A DNA stretch of 64,000 nucleotides, from the NCBI RefSeq assembly GCF_054482595.1, contig NZ_CM137008.1. The stretch is one strand, 5' to 3'. The notes under the pieces were generated by a model. That model saw only the letters and a list, made by a program, of their open reading frames with translations. It searched no databases and was not told the origin of the DNA. Positions 36,849 through 45,346 of this stretch are shown one piece after another. Both the position numbers and the translations under genes were made by a program. How positions within the stretch are numbered: position 1 is the first letter of the stretch; each line of letters opens with the position of its first letter.

Positions 36849-37289
36849 GATTACGCTCCTTTTGAAAGATGTCAGTAAAATTAACACACATTGTGAATGT
36901 CGTATGTCCGGTGATGCGTTTTTACGACAATAATGCCTGCTTGAAATTGTAGATATTTGCACTACACCCTTTTAAATAAAGCACCAACAAATCGTCAACT
37001 TGCAGAACATATTCTTCTGCCTACATACCATTAAGAAAACATCAAGTTCCCGACTTGCCAATTTATTAACGCCCATTATAGACGCTGAAACAAGCTACGG
37101 ACAAAGGAGATGCCAAAATTACCGGCAATGCAGAAAAACTCAACGAACCATGGCTCTTTACCACAGCAGCCGGGGTTGTTTGGGACCGACTTCCGACAGC
37201 AGATCCCGGTGGGCCTGCCACCATCTCTTCACAAGTTTATGCTTATTACATGCAAAACGTCCCGTTTTGCATCTTTGTGCCTACGGCAC

Positions 37290-37400
37290 ACCGTGATCTT
37301 TCCCTGGTCCCTGTCCCGGATTGTAGTACCGGTGCCAGTTGTAGTGCAGTTCGGATTCGTCGTCATACTGCTAGCCCGGATGGCGGAGCAGTTGCTCTAG
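37290..37400 (-). pseudogene. Degenerate orphan Rhs core-end remnant
   Basis: Minus-strand translation QYDDESELHYNWHRYYNPGQG… parallels [22 protein letters not shown] at the end of the intact Rhs core, then hits a stop; DNA similarity to 38400-38480. Confidence 0.5.
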
Positions 37401-37442: not shown

Positions 37443-37856
37443 TCAATATCCTAACGCTGGTCTTTTGCCTGTATTAACTGATTTAGCTGGTTTGCTACAT
37501 ATTAATGCCTTCAGATTTTCCCTTTCCTTGTCTGTGATACTGTCACAAACCCTACTAGCCCATTCTACTTCACTCTTCTCCAGGCATTCTATTTTCTTAT
37601 TGCTCATTGTTCTAATGTTTGGTGTTGCATCTCCATTTAATAACATCCATGTTTCATTTTTCTTCATAAAACATCTTCCATTATGTTCAAAGATATTAGG
37701 TGTGAATATATTATCAGAATCCCATGTTACGACTTGCTCGAGGGCTATATTATCTTGATAGTCCATGCCAGCATTATAATAATCACAAGATATAATTATC
37801 ATGGAAATAATTATCATGGAAATAATTATCACTAATATCTTCCCAAGCATTTCCAT
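37443..37856 (-). CDS. Putative Rhs immunity protein; predicted inner-membrane lipoprotein (137 aa)
   Basis: Start ATG directly abuts the rhs stop (…GTAAAGTAAATGGAAATG); signal peptide with lipobox IISC and Asp at +2; AT-rich like the Rhs C-terminal domain. Confidence 0.7.
   Translation of the reverse strand: MEMLGKILVIIISMIIISMIIISCDYYNAGMDYQDNIALEQVVTWDSDNIFTPNIFEHNGRCFMKKNETWMLLNGDATPNIRTMSNKKIECLEKSEVEWASRVCDSITDKERENLKALICSKPAKSVNTGKRPALGY
37792..37832. repeat. 15-bp tandem repeat (2.7 copies of ataattatcatggaa) inside the putative immunity gene signal peptide
   Basis: Seen directly; encodes the repeated SMIII segment of the hydrophobic core. Confidence 0.9.
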
Positions 37857-40800
37857 TTACTTTACCTCTTGAAATTCAAATGGGAATCCAGTGAAAGGAC
37901 CTTTAGGCATAATATATCTTTGATATCCATAAAGCTCACCGAGCACTTGTAGGCTTATAGGCGCATTTGTATTCATAGAGGGGTTGTTAAACCCGCACGC
38001 CTCAAAAATCATGTTCGTTCGGCTAAAACAATTATTTAAAACAGGAAGAGGCCCGAGGTTAATAGTTTTTAGTTTTTTATTAAGGTCTATTGCCTTATTC
38101 ATCATACATTGTTCTTCTTCATCTGTTGTATCTATTATCCAAATCCAGGTATCTCTGCGGGATTGTATCTTTTTAAAATAATCAGAGACAGAGGCTCCCA
38201 TCTCATCCCCAGTTCCCGAACTCATTAATCCATATCGATTTGCCGCCGCAGCATGCCCAAAAGGATTATCAGGAACGGGGCCGTTACCTATTATCATAGT
38301 ACTAAGCCCTAATGGATCAACGTGTTGCACTGGATTCAGCGGATATTGGTACAGATTCCATCCCCCCTTCAGCCCTATCGGGTCCTGAGTGATATACCGC
38401 CCCTGCAACGGATCGTAGTACCGGTTCCGGTTGTAGTACAGCCCCGACTCCTTATCATACTGCTGCCCCGGCAGCCGGTACGGCTGGTGCAGGTGATGCG
38501 GGTTCTCCTCATTAAGCTGGTTGCCCCATTCATCATACTCCGCGCTCCACGCCGTATTGCCGTCTTCACTGATAAGCGCCAGCGGCAGGCCCCGGTGGTC
38601 GCAGTGGTAAAGATGAACTTTTCTCGCCGGTGTGTATTCCGGCTCCATCTGTCTGGCCAGTTGCTCCACCGTCAGCCCGCACTGCGCAAGCCACGCCCGG
38701 CTTTCACTGCTCACGCGGTCTGCCCGGATTTCTTCCTCCAGTCTGTCCAGCAGCCGCACCAGTTCAGCCGGAAATACCACGCCGTGCCCGTCCTCGCTCC
38801 CTTCCTGCTGCATCTTCTCCGCCAGGCTGCGGCGCTGCGCTTTCTCCCGCTCGCCGTTCTCTGTCTCGCCCCGGATGAGCGGCGTGAAGCTTCCCGGCTC
38901 GTATACCGTCTGGATACGTGTGGTGTCAGTCTGCACCGTCGTCAGCCTGTCGCCGTCCCACCCGTACCATGTCTCCTCCGGTTTACGCGACAGCGACATC
39001 CATCCCGTCAGGTCACGCCCGCGACGCCACACCCGTTTCGCCATTCGCCGTCCCAGCGGGTCGTAGAGGTAGCAGCTCTCGACCAGTGGCTCGCCATGCT
39101 GTATCCGCGTGTAGAACACCAGGCGGTGCTGGCTGTCGTAGTGATAGTGGTGGGTGCGCTCGTCGTGCATCCGGATAACCCCTTCCGGGATACGGTCCGT
39201 CTTCTCCGCCAGCCTGCCGTATTCATCGTAGCGGTAGACATAGTGCGCATCTTCCGCGATGCGGTTATCCGGCCACGCCGTGAAGGTGCTGTCCGGGTGC
39301 AGTTCCGGGTCCGGCAGCCGGTTTCCTGCCGGGTCCGTCGCATACGGGATATCGATATCCAGGTTCGCTGCCGTGGTGTGGACGCCCGTCAGCCTTCCCG
39401 TGCCGCTGTAACGGTACTCCCGGCTCTCCTGCGGGCCGCTGATGCGGATTAGCTGTCCGTTGTCGTTCCAGTCGTAGTCATGGTCAAGCTGCGGAAGGTT
39501 CAGGTGCCTGCTCCGGAGCTGGCCGCTGGTATTCCAGGCGGTGGCAAGTTCATATGCCTCCCCGCCGAAGCTGCGGGCCGTCTCACGGTGCAGCCGGTCC
39601 CGCGTGTACTCGACCAGCGGCGTTCCGCCCAGCTTCATCCCCGCAAGATAACCGCTGCCATACGTCAGCCACTCCACCCGCGGCAGGCTGTCCGGCGTGA
39701 CGCGGTTTGCCAGACCCTGTTCGTTGTATGCGTGCTCTGTCTCATGCTGCCACAGCAGTTCCCCCGTCTCCGGGTTATGCACCGTCTGGCGTTCGCCGGC
39801 CAGGCGACCCTTATCATCATAACCGTAATGCACCGCCACCTGATGGCCTTCGCTCAGGTGGCTGATGTCTGTCAGCCAGCCGTGGCCGTCATACTGCCAC
39901 TGCTCTGCCGGTTCACCGTTCACCGTGCGGTGAGTGATACGGTCCGATTCGTCGTAGTGCCAGAGGGTGACAAGTCCCTCATCCTCACTCTGTGTGAGTT
40001 TTCCGGTCAGGTCATAATGATAACGCTGCGTCCGCCCGTCAAAGCCGCCCTGCTGTACCAGGCGGTCCAGCGCATCGTAGCTGAAGTCGCTGTGACTGCC
40101 GTTCTCGTTGGTCAGGCTGATGACACGTCCGGCAGCATCGTACTCCATACTGCGCGTCAGCCCGCCCTGCGTGGTGCTGACCGCCTTTCCCCACGCATCG
40201 TACTGTGTCTCGCTCCGGTTGCCGTCCGGGGTGATAACGGCAGTCAGGTCGCCTGCGGCGTTGTATTCATACCGCGTTTCACGGCCCTGTGCGTCTTTCA
40301 CCGAGGTTAACCGGCCACGGTTGTCATAGCGGCGGTAAAGGCTGATGCCTTCCTCGCGGTGGACCGCCGTCATCTGGCCGAAGCGGTCGTATTCATAGCG
40401 GGTCTGGTAGCCCGAGCAGTCGGTGAACGCCAGCAACTGACCGTAGCGGCTCCACGTCATCTGCCGGGTGCTGCCCGTCGCATCTGTTGTCGTGGCCGGT
40501 AATTCACTGTGCGCATCATCATAGCGGTAGCGTACTGTCTCCCCGCTGCGCGATGTCTCCGTTACCAGCCTGTCCAGTTCATCATATGCCCGGCGGCTCT
40601 CCAGCCCGTCCGGGGACACCACCGCCGTCAGCTGGTTCCCGTCGTTATAGTAAAATTTCGTCTCCCGCCCGTCCGGTGTGGTGATGTCCGTGATATCGCC
40701 GGACACCACATTCAGACCGTACTCTGTCCGCCGTCCCGCCGCGTCCGTCTGCGCCGTGAGCCTTCCTGCCGCGTCATACCCGCTGTGCGTGACGCTGCCA

Positions 40801-42062
40801 TCCGCCAGTTCTTTTTTCACCACCCGTTTCAGCCCGCCTTCACCTTCTGTATGCAGCACCTCACGCCGGTTCAGGCTGTCGGTGACGGTGATGCGGTCCT
40901 GCTCATACTGGTAGCGGTAACTCAGGCCTGCCGGGTTAAGCTGCTCCACCACCCGCCCGGTATCGTCGTAGCGGTAGCGCATCTCCGGCCTTCCCGCATA
41001 ACGGTGCCCCACCATCCGGCCCGGGTGCTGCGCGTCATACGTGAAAGCGCGCACCTGTGTCCCGCTGCGGTCATATACCGCCAGCAGTTCACCGGCTTCC
41101 GTATACGTGTACCGCGCCAGTGGCGCTCCGGGCAGGCTCTCCGGGTATGCCGGGTCGTGCATCAGCCACACCGCCAAAAGGCGGATACCCCTGTCGGGGC
41201 CGTATTCGGTACCGGGCAGTGTGTCGGGGAACGCTGAGGCTGAGAGAGGGCGGGAACGGTCAGAAGAAGATAGCGAAGAGGTGCGGGCCTCTTCCGCACG
41301 CTGCGCCTGCGTGGTCAGCACCAGACGGAACTCCCGCCCGGCACCGTCCGTCACGCCGGTGATTTCCCCGGCCAGGTCACCGGCGGCCTCACGCCGGTAC
41401 GTCAGCGTCCGCCCGAAGCGGTCCGCCATCCCGGTAAGCACCCGGTACGGCGGCAGCGGCGCTGGCAGTACGTCCTCAGCACCCGGCACCCGCTCAGACC
41501 ACCCCAGTATCCACCACGGCCCCTGTGCGCTGTTGGTCGCCAGGTAAAGATGCGGGCTTAACCGGATATCCGGCGGCAGCGACGCCCACAGCCGTGCCAG
41601 CGTATGGCCGTCCGGCTGCGTTGCCTTACCGCCACGCACCAGCCACAGGGACTCGCTGCGGCTGTACACCGCCTCACCCGGCAGCAGCGGCTCAAAGTGA
41701 ATGCTCCGTCCGCCGTTGTCGTTGAGTACCAGTGCATCATCGCGTAGCTGTAAGCGGATATCAGAAGGCGCTTTCCAGCCGGGGCCAAAAATCCCCACCG
41801 GTGCAGGCGTCTTCGTCCGGTAGCTGCTGTAGGTGCGGGAGAGAATGAACGGCAGCGGGCCGGGCAGCGCAAGGTCCGTCTCGCCGGGCAGCACCTTCGC
41901 CCCCAGTAGCGGGTTTACCGGGTTAGAATAGGTGATACCGCCCGGACACACCGAGCACGCCACACCGGTCGGCGCGCCTATCAGTACCCCCGCTGACCCC
42001 TGGACTATCGGACCGCCGTACTGGGTCATATCTCCCTGGCGTGCCGCTGGTTTTCCGCTCAT
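37857..42062 (-). CDS. rhs: PAAR-domain Rhs protein (1401 aa): N-terminal PAAR-like region, YD/RHS repeat core, DPLGL boundary, 148-aa C-terminal domain of unknown function (putative toxin)
   Basis: N-terminus [11 protein letters not shown]…; numerous YD repeats; core ends …[32 protein letters not shown] at 38304-38318; downstream CT (37860-38303) is AT-rich. Confidence 0.9.
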
Positions 42063-42129
42063 GATTCAAATTCCTTCTTCTGTTTATTTTTAATGCTGGT
42101 TTGTTACTGAATACCGAACAGGTACGGGA

Positions 42130-44238
42130 TCAGTACTCTCTCATATCCGGCGTATCCTGCTTTTCATCAGGTGTCTTCGGTGGGGATTTCGAGGCTGCAC
42201 AGTTCAAGTTAATCAACAGTGAGTCACCATTAACCTGCTCCTTACCCTGCAAATGAATTTTTGTGCCGTTGAGAAAAATTTGTCCGTCCTTCGTCAGCAC
42301 CAGCCTTGCCTTACCACAGCAGAGCTCCAGATGCTCCCCGGCAGAGTAAATCGCTGTCTGTCCGGTATCATCCTTCTTCGTTTTACCCACGGTGAAGGTG
42401 ACGTTATTTCCGACTTTAACGTCATATCCTTTCCCCACAAGCAGCGATTTATTTACCCCCACCTGCGAGGACTGCATCAGCGCCACCGAGGTGTTCATAA
42501 TGCCACCTACCGTCGTCTGATACGCCACGCCCACGGTCAGCGCACGAACAAGTCCAATCGTTTCCACCTGAACAGAACCCACTTTAATTATCTGGTTACT
42601 GCCCACCGTCTCTATCTGGTTAACACCCACCGTCTGTATCTGATTGTTGGTAACCGCAATCATCTGATTGTTGCCAATGGTTTCAGCATGGTTGTTTATC
42701 ACATCCGTGGTGCGGTTATTCAGCACCTCGGTGTTCATGTTCTTCTGCGCGTGGATGTAGACCTGTTCTTTCCCTGTCGCATCGTCAAACTTCAGTTCAT
42801 TAAACCCGCTGCCCTTATAGGTTTTCGAACGAATGGTCATCTGCGTCTTCGTCCCCGGCAGGCTGCCGGGGGTGCGGTTTTCCTGGTGGTAGGTACGCCC
42901 CATAATAATCGGCTGGTCCGGATCGCCGTTGAGGAAGTCCACAATCACCTCCTGACCCACACGCGGTATCGCCAGGTTGCCAAAGCCGGTGCCTGCCCAC
43001 GCCTGTGCCACACGGATCCAGCATGAACTGTCCTGGTTTGACGGGTTATAGCGGTCCCAGTTAAATTTCACCCGCACGCGGCCATGTTCATCACAGAAGA
43101 TTTCCTCGCCTGCCGGTCCCGTCACGACGGCGCTCTGCGGGCCGTCCACCATCGGTTTCAGCAACGGCTGTGGCCGCCATGTCCGGTCTGCCGGGATTAC
43201 CGCAAAGTGGTTATTCAGCGTGGTACCTGAACCACTGCGTCCCGGCACCGCCTGCGGCTGCTCGCCGTGCAGTTCACTTGCCACCACCTGCCATTCCCGG
43301 TTCAGGTTCGCCTGCGGATGCCCCGTCAGCGCAATTCGCCGTCCCGGCCATATCTCCGGAGAACGGCTTGTTCCGCGCGCCACTTCTGCGTTGTTTCGCC
43401 AGCCATCCATCTGCCAGCGGGCAAAGTTCTGCCCGTGGGCACCCTTGAAACGTCCGGGGTAGTCATACACTTCATACTGTGTGCGCTGGTAATCCTGGTA
43501 CTGGCCTTCCTGATCAAAACGCCCTGCCCAGCCGGGTCGTTTAAAGGTGTAGTCTTTGGTCACCACGGAAGAAGGGCGGATTTGTGCGCTGTAGCGAAAC
43601 TGGCTGATGCATAGGGTGCTCACCTCGGTACGGGTGTTCGGGTTCCAGGGGATCTCAAAGGACTCCGGCAGATAACGCACGGTGTCGCACAGGACCAGGC
43701 TCTGGTCGATACTTTTTTGCGCGTGCTCCTCATAAAAGAAGATGCCTTCCTCCGCCGCCATCCGGCACAGGAAATCGTAATCGGTTTCGCCGTACTGGAC
43801 ACAAAACTCACGGGAAGGATGTGGCTCGCTGAACAGCGGGCTCCACTCGGTAACCCCGTTTTCCTGCAATATCGTGCCGAGGATGCTTTCGATGTCCTCA
43901 TTCTGGAAGATACGGAAGTTCTGGCGCAGCCCTGTGCGCCACAGCGGTGGGCACACCTTCATGCTGTACAGCATCTGGTTTTTGTCGTTCTCCCCCAGTT
44001 CAAACCAGGTCACCATACCTTTCACCCGGCGCTGTACGTCATCGCCCTGCCATACCGTCAGGTAGGCCATTTTGTCCAGCACCTGCGCAAATTCAAGGGA
44101 AAGAAACTGCTGACTGACCAGAGAAAGGTCGAGGGAAAAAAGTGAAGAGAGTGACTGGGAGAGGTGAAAGGAAACCACCGCAAAAGCATCCGGTGGCAGG
44201 CCGTCCACTTCAAGTGTGAAACGTAATCCGGTTGACAT
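42130..44238 (-). CDS. vgrG: Type VI secretion spike protein VgrG
   Basis: Start placed at MSTGLRFTLEVDGLP within ORF 42130-44274; VgrG gp27/gp5-like sequence; 67 bp upstream of rhs. Confidence 0.85.
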   Translation of the reverse strand: MSTGLRFTLEVDGLPPDAFAVVSFHLSQSLSSLFSLDLSLVSQQFLSLEFAQVLDKMAYLTVWQGDDVQRRVKGMVTWFELGENDKNQMLYSMKVCPPLWRTGLRQNFRIFQNEDIESILGTILQENGVTEWSPLFSEPHPSREFCVQYGETDYDFLCRMAAEEGIFFYEEHAQKSIDQSLVLCDTVRYLPESFEIPWNPNTRTEVSTLCISQFRYSAQIRPSSVVTKDYTFKRPGWAGRFDQEGQYQDYQRTQYEVYDYPGRFKGAHGQNFARWQMDGWRNNAEVARGTSRSPEIWPGRRIALTGHPQANLNREWQVVASELHGEQPQAVPGRSGSGTTLNNHFAVIPADRTWRPQPLLKPMVDGPQSAVVTGPAGEEIFCDEHGRVRVKFNWDRYNPSNQDSSCWIRVAQAWAGTGFGNLAIPRVGQEVIVDFLNGDPDQPIIMGRTYHQENRTPGSLPGTKTQMTIRSKTYKGSGFNELKFDDATGKEQVYIHAQKNMNTEVLNNRTTDVINNHAETIGNNQMIAVTNNQIQTVGVNQIETVGSNQIIKVGSVQVETIGLVRALTVGVAYQTTVGGIMNTSVALMQSSQVGVNKSLLVGKGYDVKVGNNVTFTVGKTKKDDTGQTAIYSAGEHLELCCGKARLVLTKDGQIFLNGTKIHLQGKEQVNGDSLLINLNCAASKSPPKTPDEKQDTPDMREY

Positions 44239-45346
44239 AGCAACCTCCGTGAAAATGAATAATAATCCGCACATATTGCATGTACAACATGTCGGGCGGA
44301 TGAGATAAGCGAGTCGACATCTGGCGTTACCGGGGAATATCAGAAAAATGTCATGGTTATGTGATGATTTAGTCTGGGATTTTACTTCAGAGAAACGGGT
44401 GTCTGTTTAGTCAACAAAATAATCACAAACGCAACGGATGGGTTCTCGACGTTATTCACGACAGGCTCGTACATTACAGCGAGTAATAAAAAACCCGATA
44501 TGCAAAGTCAAACCAATATTCATAATGTCTTTTTATTCACAACAATAAATAATTTAATAACAATCATTGAAATGAATGATGATTTGTATAAGGAATATAC
44601 GCTACCGCCCCACCCTGATAACATGATCTGCACATTGCCATCTTAACGTCGTTAAACACTGGCTTAATAGTGGATATTTCAAATTAGGAATTTATTAAAT
44701 TCACCTGATGAATATCATAAGCAAATAGCATAGAAAATAATGACAACTCCCCCGAGGGGACCATTTCCAAAGCACTGCACCACCACCTGGTGCCCGGATG
44801 ATCTTGCTTCAGTGGTAAGAGTACCTGATTCATTGTTCCCAAAATGGTGTTTTCCCCTGCCCCTCCAATAATGTGCAGCTCTCACGTGATAATCTATTGA
44901 TTAGGTTATATTAAGAATCAATATTTAAAATACATCCATTTTCTTGAATAAATCAACATGTTTATTAATCAATTGCTGTTTTAGCTCTGACTCATCAAGC
45001 TCTCCATATTTGTCCTACAGATAATTGCGAATAAATACAGAGAACGCCATTTATCCTTTTAGCATACCTGCCGGATATTTTTATTTGTATTAATATTAAT
45101 TGCATCTCCAACTCCGAGCATATCCATCATTAAAAAAATTTTGAGATTATAGAATACCTGTGATAACAAGTGAAACATCTGCACAATGTGAATAGTTAGT
45201 TTCTTTTCAGAGGAAATGAAATAGACACGCTGAATGAAAGGGAGAGTGATATAAATTAAAAAACATAACGTGAATTTAATTAATTACGCCCATCATTGTG
45301 GATAAAGTTACTGAATAATAAATAACATAATCTTCTGGTATCCCAC

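Follow-up and report, generated by a model that had tools for sequence, protein, structure and literature searches.

A predicted circularly permuted NlpC/P60 toxin domain at the tip of an Escherichia coli PAAR-Rhs protein and its putative lipoprotein immunity partner

The subject of this study is the C-terminal domain (CT) of a PAAR-Rhs effector encoded in a 64,000 nt stretch of Escherichia coli DNA (assembly GCF_054482595.1, contig NZ_CM137008.1; hereafter the window), together with the small gene that follows it. The CT comprises 148 amino acids (aa; residues 1254-1401; 37860..38303) and is predicted to belong to the circularly permuted NlpC/P60 (papain-fold) class, in which the catalytic His precedes the Cys. 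It is probably an acyl hydrolase, delivered by a type VI secretion system (T6SS), that acts on membrane lipids from the periplasmic side, with the lipoprotein encoded immediately downstream as its immunity protein. Its closest characterized analogue is Salmonella Tox-Act1, a periplasm-acting phospholipase. Apart from a tandem repeat and an intergenic gap, all features of the window that are given with coordinates below lie on the minus strand.

The effector gene (37857..42062) encodes 1401 aa and a stop codon. Its core (residues 1-1253; 38304..42062) is made up of a PAAR-like N-terminus, a YD-repeat shell and an Rhs-associated core terminating in the motif DPLGL (GATCCATTAGGGCTT; 38304..38318), which is presumed, from the analogy to other Rhs proteins, to undergo autoproteolysis. 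An earlier note on this stretch, made from the letters alone, had placed the end of the core at this motif and had described a switch from GC-rich to AT-rich DNA at the same point. Both statements were borne out: the NCBIfam model RHS_core (NF041261) spans exactly residues 1-1253 (2710 bits), TIGR03696 (Rhs-associated core) spans residues 1176-1253, and the GC content drops from 0.635 in the core to 0.394 in the CT, with 0.336 in the downstream open reading frame (ORF), against approximately 0.52 in the flanking chromosome. The two products are named 'RHS element core protein' and 'hypothetical protein' in RefSeq. Of 5426 complete E. coli genomes, 541 carry the CT and the downstream gene at 95-100% identity.

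Searches of Pfam, NCBIfam, PADLOC and PDB sequences gave no match to the CT, and no Pfam family was matched even at E <= 10, the models Tox-HDC, Tox-PL1/2/3 and Tox-NLPC/P60 being among those searched. Tox-HDC (H, D, C toxin domain), which appears beside canonical papain-like toxin domains in the catalogue of Zhang et al. 2012 (PMC3482391), was considered and ruled out by the lack of any Pfam match. A short-chain dehydrogenase match to the family profile ('FGH..A...G..SFG', E 0.16) was judged to be due to chance. The view that the CT has no recognizable family thus stands for these libraries; however, when 1.84 billion cluster representatives were scanned exhaustively with phmmer, 152 relatives were recovered at E <= 1e-3, and a fold was predicted (see below). 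The family domain is located at the extreme C-terminus in 145 of 166 proteins, which are often 1100-2500 aa long, and is directly preceded by DPxG[LF..] in 114 of the 166. The CT family is therefore a widespread polymorphic-toxin tip domain, in agreement with the swappable Rhs-CT module that had been proposed.

The CT indeed lacks HExxH, HNH or similar motifs, as had been noted; however, a conserved His17...Cys92 dyad had been overlooked. Residues N13, G16, H17, G30, R50 and C92 are invariant in 56 diverse family members with a mean column identity of 30%, and in a 141-sequence family alignment His17 is conserved in 99% and Cys92 in 100%. The codon of His17 (His1270), the putative catalytic base, is located at 38253..38255, and that of Cys92 (Cys1345), the putative nucleophile within an 'NNC' motif, at 38028..38030. 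The two residues are separated by 75 positions in the CT and by 68-96 across the family; N13, S28 and R50, all invariant in the 56-sequence alignment, are candidates for a third polar catalytic residue.

An AlphaFold2 model of the CT computed from the family alignment was confident (predicted local distance difference test, pLDDT, 91.1; predicted template modelling score, pTM, 0.86) and shows a papain-like alpha+beta fold. In this model His17 opens the beta-strand 17-22, and Cys92 begins the helix 92-102 later in the chain; a His on a strand ahead of a Cys at a helix start is the order of circularly permuted papain/NlpC-P60 enzymes. A structure search, as suggested in the earlier note, was informative for the CT and gave no structural match for the downstream protein. 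The highest-scoring matches to the CT model were YiiX (PDB 2if6, score 10.6), the Vibrio cholerae T6SS effector TseH (6v98, 10.3), a YiiX-like protein from Bacillus cereus (3kw0, 9.2) and the RID acyltransferase domain of MARTX (5xn7, 7.5), whereas PLAAT4, Tae4 and CwlO scored about 4-5. With Foldseek against AFDB50, the first matches were Rhs tips of E. coli and Hafnia, followed by Rhs tips mixed with proteins annotated 'DUF4105 / Lnb N-terminal periplasmic domain' (TMq 0.7-0.85). Pfam Lnb_N (PF13387) matched one of 56 family members at E <= 1e-3 and four of 56 at E <= 0.1.

The putative immunity gene (37443..37856, 137 aa) begins at the base following the rhs stop codon, and its Shine-Dalgarno sequence, AAGAGG, falls within the final rhs codons. 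The product was correctly described in the earlier note as a membrane-anchored lipoprotein: judged from its sequence, it fits the bacterial lipoprotein pattern of a positive n-region, a hydrophobic core and [LVI][ASTVI][GAS]C, here with K6, the core ILVIIISMIIISMII and the lipobox IIS-C24. The single N-terminal hydrophobic segment reaches a Kyte-Doolittle maximum of 2.88 in a 19-residue window. The Asp at position +2 (Asp25) is invariant, and 'SCDYY' or 'ACDYY' is retained in all homologs; Asp at +2 is an inner-membrane retention signal (Lol avoidance) in E. coli. The mature domain of about 113 aa contains four invariant Cys residues, a pattern typical of periplasmic disulfides. No convincing match to this protein was obtained in Pfam, NCBIfam, PADLOC or PDB sequence searches, and a match to NanM/YjhT (E 0.01-0.09, 45 residues) was judged to be due to chance. 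The linkage of the CT and the immunity gene is retained in E. coli, Salmonella and Citrobacter, even where identity drops to 62% for the toxin and 39% for the immunity protein. A perfect 15-bp tandem repeat (37792..37831, 2.7 copies) encodes repeated SMIII units in the core of the signal peptide. The number of copies differs from strain to strain, the commonest variant of the immunity protein having 132 aa compared with 137 aa here, and the length of the hydrophobic core therefore varies by repeat slippage; match lengths of 1186, 1201 and 1216 bp were seen among E. coli genomes.

The neighbours of other family members point to the envelope as the site of action. The downstream ORF encodes a lipobox, signal-anchor or two-transmembrane (2-TM) protein in 16 of 16 CT-family loci, drawn from Gammaproteobacteria, Betaproteobacteria, Verrucomicrobiota, Chloroflexota and Desulfobacterota, and a soluble cytoplasmic protein in none. 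This uniformity argues for a periplasmic or membrane target and constitutes the strongest in silico support for it; the envelope-directed activity that the earlier note had only suggested from the one lipoprotein is strengthened correspondingly. The downstream proteins fall into the enterobacterial lipoprotein found in the window, ankyrin-repeat lipoproteins, a lipoprotein of the Variovorax/Xylophilus type, a TM-anchored domain of about 115 aa, and 2-TM proteins of about 77-92 aa with the topology of Imm-Act1, the immunity protein of Tox-Act1. The ankyrin-repeat lipoproteins, found after CT-family toxins in Solimonas, Methylovulum and an Anaerolineaceae metagenome-assembled genome (loci L004:10480-10950, L015:2996-3442 and L016:547-1005), look like a recurrent exported immunity class. 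The 2-TM proteins adjoin three distant family members (L006:7800-8048, L007:7612-7845 and L022:2519-2797), and these three toxins have no significant sequence similarity to Tox-Act1.

Tox-Act1 (STox_15) is a T6SS effector of Salmonella with a permuted NlpC/P60 core, from a sister clade of DUF4105 (PMC12994826, PLoS Biol 2026; 2024 preprint). It is toxic only in a periplasm-targeted form, requires His43 and Cys151, converts phosphatidylglycerol (PG) and phosphatidylethanolamine (PE) to lysolipids both in vitro and in vivo, and is neutralized by the small 2-TM protein Imm-Act1 (PMC12994826). For the CT, a comparable course of events is considered the most likely. The PAAR-Rhs effector would ride on the adjacent VgrG spike with the CT as toxic cargo, which, as in other Rhs proteins, would be severed after DPLGL, kept within the YD-repeat shell and freed in the target cell. 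There, the CT, as a permuted Cys-His enzyme belonging to the YiiX/TseH/Lnb/Tox-Act1 class, would use His1270 as the base and Cys1345 as the nucleophile to cleave acyl esters at the periplasmic side of the membrane via a thioester acyl-enzyme intermediate. Removal of acyl chains from PE and PG would lead to the accumulation of lysophospholipids and free fatty acids, and the permeabilized cell would lyse. In the producer, the immunity lipoprotein, held at the outer face of the inner membrane by its Asp at +2, would bind and block the CT. The anatomy of the genes, membership in the family, the conservation of the dyad, the fold prediction and the exported character of the neighbours are what the present analysis shows, whereas the route of delivery, the substrate, the chemistry and the role in immunity are inferred from these.

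Several results weigh against this mechanism. BLASTP finds no similarity between the CT and Tox-Act1, the CT-family hidden Markov model (HMM) scores a nonsignificant 1.5-2.9 bits against the Tox-Act1 group with all filters off, and hhalign with the family profile reaches 0.55% against Tox-Act1 alone. Against a six-sequence Tox-Act1 profile, which was built with plasmid homologs from Aeromonas, Providencia and Vibrio, hhalign gives 29%, with 24 columns around the Cys aligned. Pfam Lnb_N is matched by none of six central family members, and the CT itself does not match it at E <= 10. The model of the immunity protein is of moderate quality (pLDDT 68) and has no structural match. TseH was originally proposed to be a peptidoglycan hydrolase. 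Finally, the cytoplasm is the usual site of action of Rhs-fused toxins (PMC12994826).

The alternatives differ chiefly in substrate and compartment. The CT might be a lipoprotein-directed acyltransferase or deacylase resembling Lnb, rather than a general phospholipase, so that aberrant N-acylation or acyl removal at lipoprotein anchors would impair Lol sorting and the integrity of the envelope; the lipoprotein at the inner membrane could then serve as a decoy or as a plug of the active site. The nearest non-Rhs AFDB neighbours carry the DUF4105/Lnb N-terminal annotation and Lnb_N is the sole Pfam signal in the family, although this similarity is marginal or absent. The catalytic Cys of Lnb N-acylates lipoproteins (10.1101/2024.05.31.596883), and lipoproteins were raised as possible targets of Tox-Act1 by its authors (PMC12994826). 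However, Tox-Act1 and TseH, the two toxins of this fold class to have been tested, both show phospholipase activity (PMC12994826). Many immunity proteins of the family are lipoproteins, and in the window the Asp at +2 puts the protein where lipoproteins mature, but other family members are paired with 2-TM or signal-anchored proteins that are not lipoproteins. An Lnb-like activity is considered unlikely. It is likewise doubtful that the family forms a separate permuted NlpC/P60 branch nearer to Lnb than to Tox-Act1, killing by mis-acylation or de-acylation of lipoprotein anchors that blocks Lol trafficking, and not through bulk phospholipid hydrolysis; if true, this would be a new toxin target class in about 10% of E. 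coli.

A periplasmic peptidoglycan amidase or endopeptidase, of the kind represented by the canonical NlpC/P60 effectors (Tae/Tse1 type) and blocked by a periplasmic lipoprotein, would agree with the compartment. However, both the order of the dyad, His before Cys, and the best structural matches point to the permuted branch, which is linked to lipid substrates, and canonical NlpC/P60 structures score far below the permuted ones. Furthermore, lysis by Tox-Act1 leaves the rod shape and the sacculus intact (PMC12994826), and a peptidoglycan target appears improbable for the CT. Action in the cytoplasm, as a protein acyltransferase like MARTX RID, a thiol protease or a deamidase, would require the downstream lipoprotein to be something other than an immunity protein or to intercept the CT merely in transit; with all 16 downstream ORFs exported or membrane proteins, four invariant Cys residues in the immunity protein and an Rhs N-terminus that has no TM segment, it is very unlikely. 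Least probable of all, and barely to be entertained, is a module that has become an inactive passenger of the Rhs core and no longer works as a toxin. The decayed remnant of another Rhs core does lie just downstream, and rhsE, at this same chromosomal position, is a pseudogene in some E. coli strains. On the other hand, the 1401-aa frame and the immunity ORF are intact, the CT holds every residue that is invariant in the family, the module is kept at high identity in the 541 genomes mentioned above, and the AlphaFold2 model is confident. A lipid-directed acyl hydrolase acting from the periplasm is accordingly the preferred assignment.

The host chromosome carries the rhs island between pptA/yddH/nhoA/narZYWV and yncH/yncG. 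The gene vgrG, for the T6SS spike protein (42130..44274; NCBIfam TIGR03361 VI_Rhs_Vgr, E 7e-189), is located upstream of rhs and, in strain Santai, whose locus is identical, is annotated as VgrG; its longest ORF encodes 714 aa, compared with 702 aa in the RefSeq annotation. The gap between vgrG and rhs (42063-42129, 67 bp) contains no eagR/DUF1795 chaperone gene, and in Rhs residues 1-200 (41463-42062) no TM-like segment was detected, the Kyte-Doolittle maximum in a 19-residue window being 1.44. The Rhs remnant, situated between the immunity gene and pptA, is a degenerate 3' end of another Rhs core with an in-frame stop (37284..37388; LRHPG, stop, QYDDESELHYNWHRYYNPGQG..., in the shorter form LRHPG, stop, QYDDESELHYNWHRYYNPGQGPGKDHGVP), and probably represents the scar left by a former toxin cassette that was ousted by the present one. 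An anti-phage defence role was dropped because of the lack of PADLOC matches and the T6SS context.

A genome scan with a narrowed CT-family profile gave ten loci. In Xylophilus sp. Leaf220 (L023, 2501-3330) the toxin domain is broken, with a stop after '...MRDES' and the remainder in another frame; the lipoprotein gene downstream is intact and is possibly an orphan immunity gene beside a decayed toxin. In Citrobacter farmeri (L005, 7330-9875) a toxin/immunity pair is followed by a fragment of an IS1 transposase, an ORF of 122 aa and an orphan Rhs fragment of 638 aa, an arrangement typical of arrays of displaced Rhs cassettes.

Lipid-attacking T6SS toxins with a permuted NlpC/P60 fold are already known, and Rhs-fused examples have been listed in the literature but are uncharacterized there. 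What is new here is an uncharacterized but common E. coli member of a sequence family that lies outside Pfam and NCBIfam, with a new lipoprotein immunity protein. The CT module, carried by roughly a tenth of complete E. coli genomes, adds a common enterobacterial case to a toxin class that was characterized only in 2024-2026, in an Rhs shell whose toxin probably acts in the periplasm, in contrast to the usual cytoplasmic Rhs tips. Its placement in the permuted class provides a concrete hypothesis, with two catalytic residues, a compartment and a lipid readout. Furthermore, a large toxin-domain family is matched by immunity proteins that are located in the envelope and fall into at least five unrelated classes; a family not captured by existing libraries and with this diversity of immunity is therefore useful for annotation and for the evolution of immunity to membrane-active enzymes.

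Among the other known systems, the clans of the earlier E. coli Rhs-CT catalogue, in the summary given by PMC6730261, are DNase, RNase, deaminase, peptidase, pore-forming and unknown, and a lipid-directed class of this kind is absent from them. The T6SS lipases Tle1-5 similarly attack membranes from the periplasm and are blocked by periplasmic lipoproteins, the Tli proteins (PMC6730261). However, Tle1-4 belong to the alpha/beta-hydrolases with a GXSXG motif, whereas Tle5 is a phospholipase D marked by HxKxxxxD motifs; their fold and catalytic chemistry have no relation to those predicted for the CT. TseH (VCA0285), which has 7% identity to the CT, is a free-standing cargo effector with a different immunity protein, and its clade is tied to Pfam DUF6695 (PMC12994826 tables). 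YiiX/YaeF (Peptidase_C92) and LRAT/PLAAT, with 8-13% identity, are cellular enzymes rather than secreted toxins, and the Pfam models Peptidase_C92 and LRAT do not match the CT. Lnb/DUF4105 is the nearest housekeeping family by structure (Foldseek), besides providing the Pfam signal discussed above. Lnb is a Cys-dependent lipoprotein N-acyltransferase of Bacteroides, of which DUF4105 is the periplasmic domain (10.1101/2024.05.31.596883). Unlike the CT, it is a membrane enzyme with five TM helices and not a toxin; its His-Cys spacing is 99, and a conserved Asn 17 residues past the His has no counterpart in the CT.

The comparison with Tox-Act1 is the closest. The reference protein (P0184, 279 aa) was recovered via peptides translated from the primers of PMC12994826. 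The clade tables of that study include Rhs-fused relatives, and the Tox-Act1 clade, as defined there by PSI-BLAST, is heterogeneous and holds both Rhs-fused and DUF4105-annotated proteins; the lone E. coli Rhs in the tables is QMP79959.1 (RHS+DUF4105, clade 'DUF4105b'), and CT-family members matched no entry of the S3 tables by accession, organism or length (PMC12994826). Homologs of Tox-Act1 (34-53% identity; loci L010-L014 and 76 plasmid records) were found on plasmids, most of them conjugative, of Aeromonas, Providencia, Proteus, Moellerella and Vibrio; some are PAAR-fused, and several are annotated merely as hypothetical proteins. Membership of the CT in the Tox-Act1 sequence family was not supported, as neither BLASTP, HMM nor hhalign comparison was significant, and the sole alignable segment is the 'NNC' helix against the 'GNNC151TTH' helix. 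The two also differ in their His-Cys spacing (108 in Tox-Act1, 75 in the CT) and in their setting: P0184 is a free-standing gene in the SPI-6 cluster, followed by the gene for the 86-aa 2-TM protein Imm-Act1 (L003:4830-5090), whereas the CT forms part of a PAAR-Rhs fusion within a vgrG island and its putative immunity protein is an unrelated 137-aa lipoprotein. Nevertheless, both are, by experiment or by prediction, T6SS antibacterial toxins that have a permuted NlpC/P60 fold, a dyad in the order His then Cys, similar motifs ('GH[AG]' on the strand and 'NNC' at the helix start), a site of action that is inferred to be the periplasm or membrane and a membrane-associated immunity protein. The CT therefore shares its predicted fold class and its dyad order, and probably also its mode of action, with Tox-Act1.

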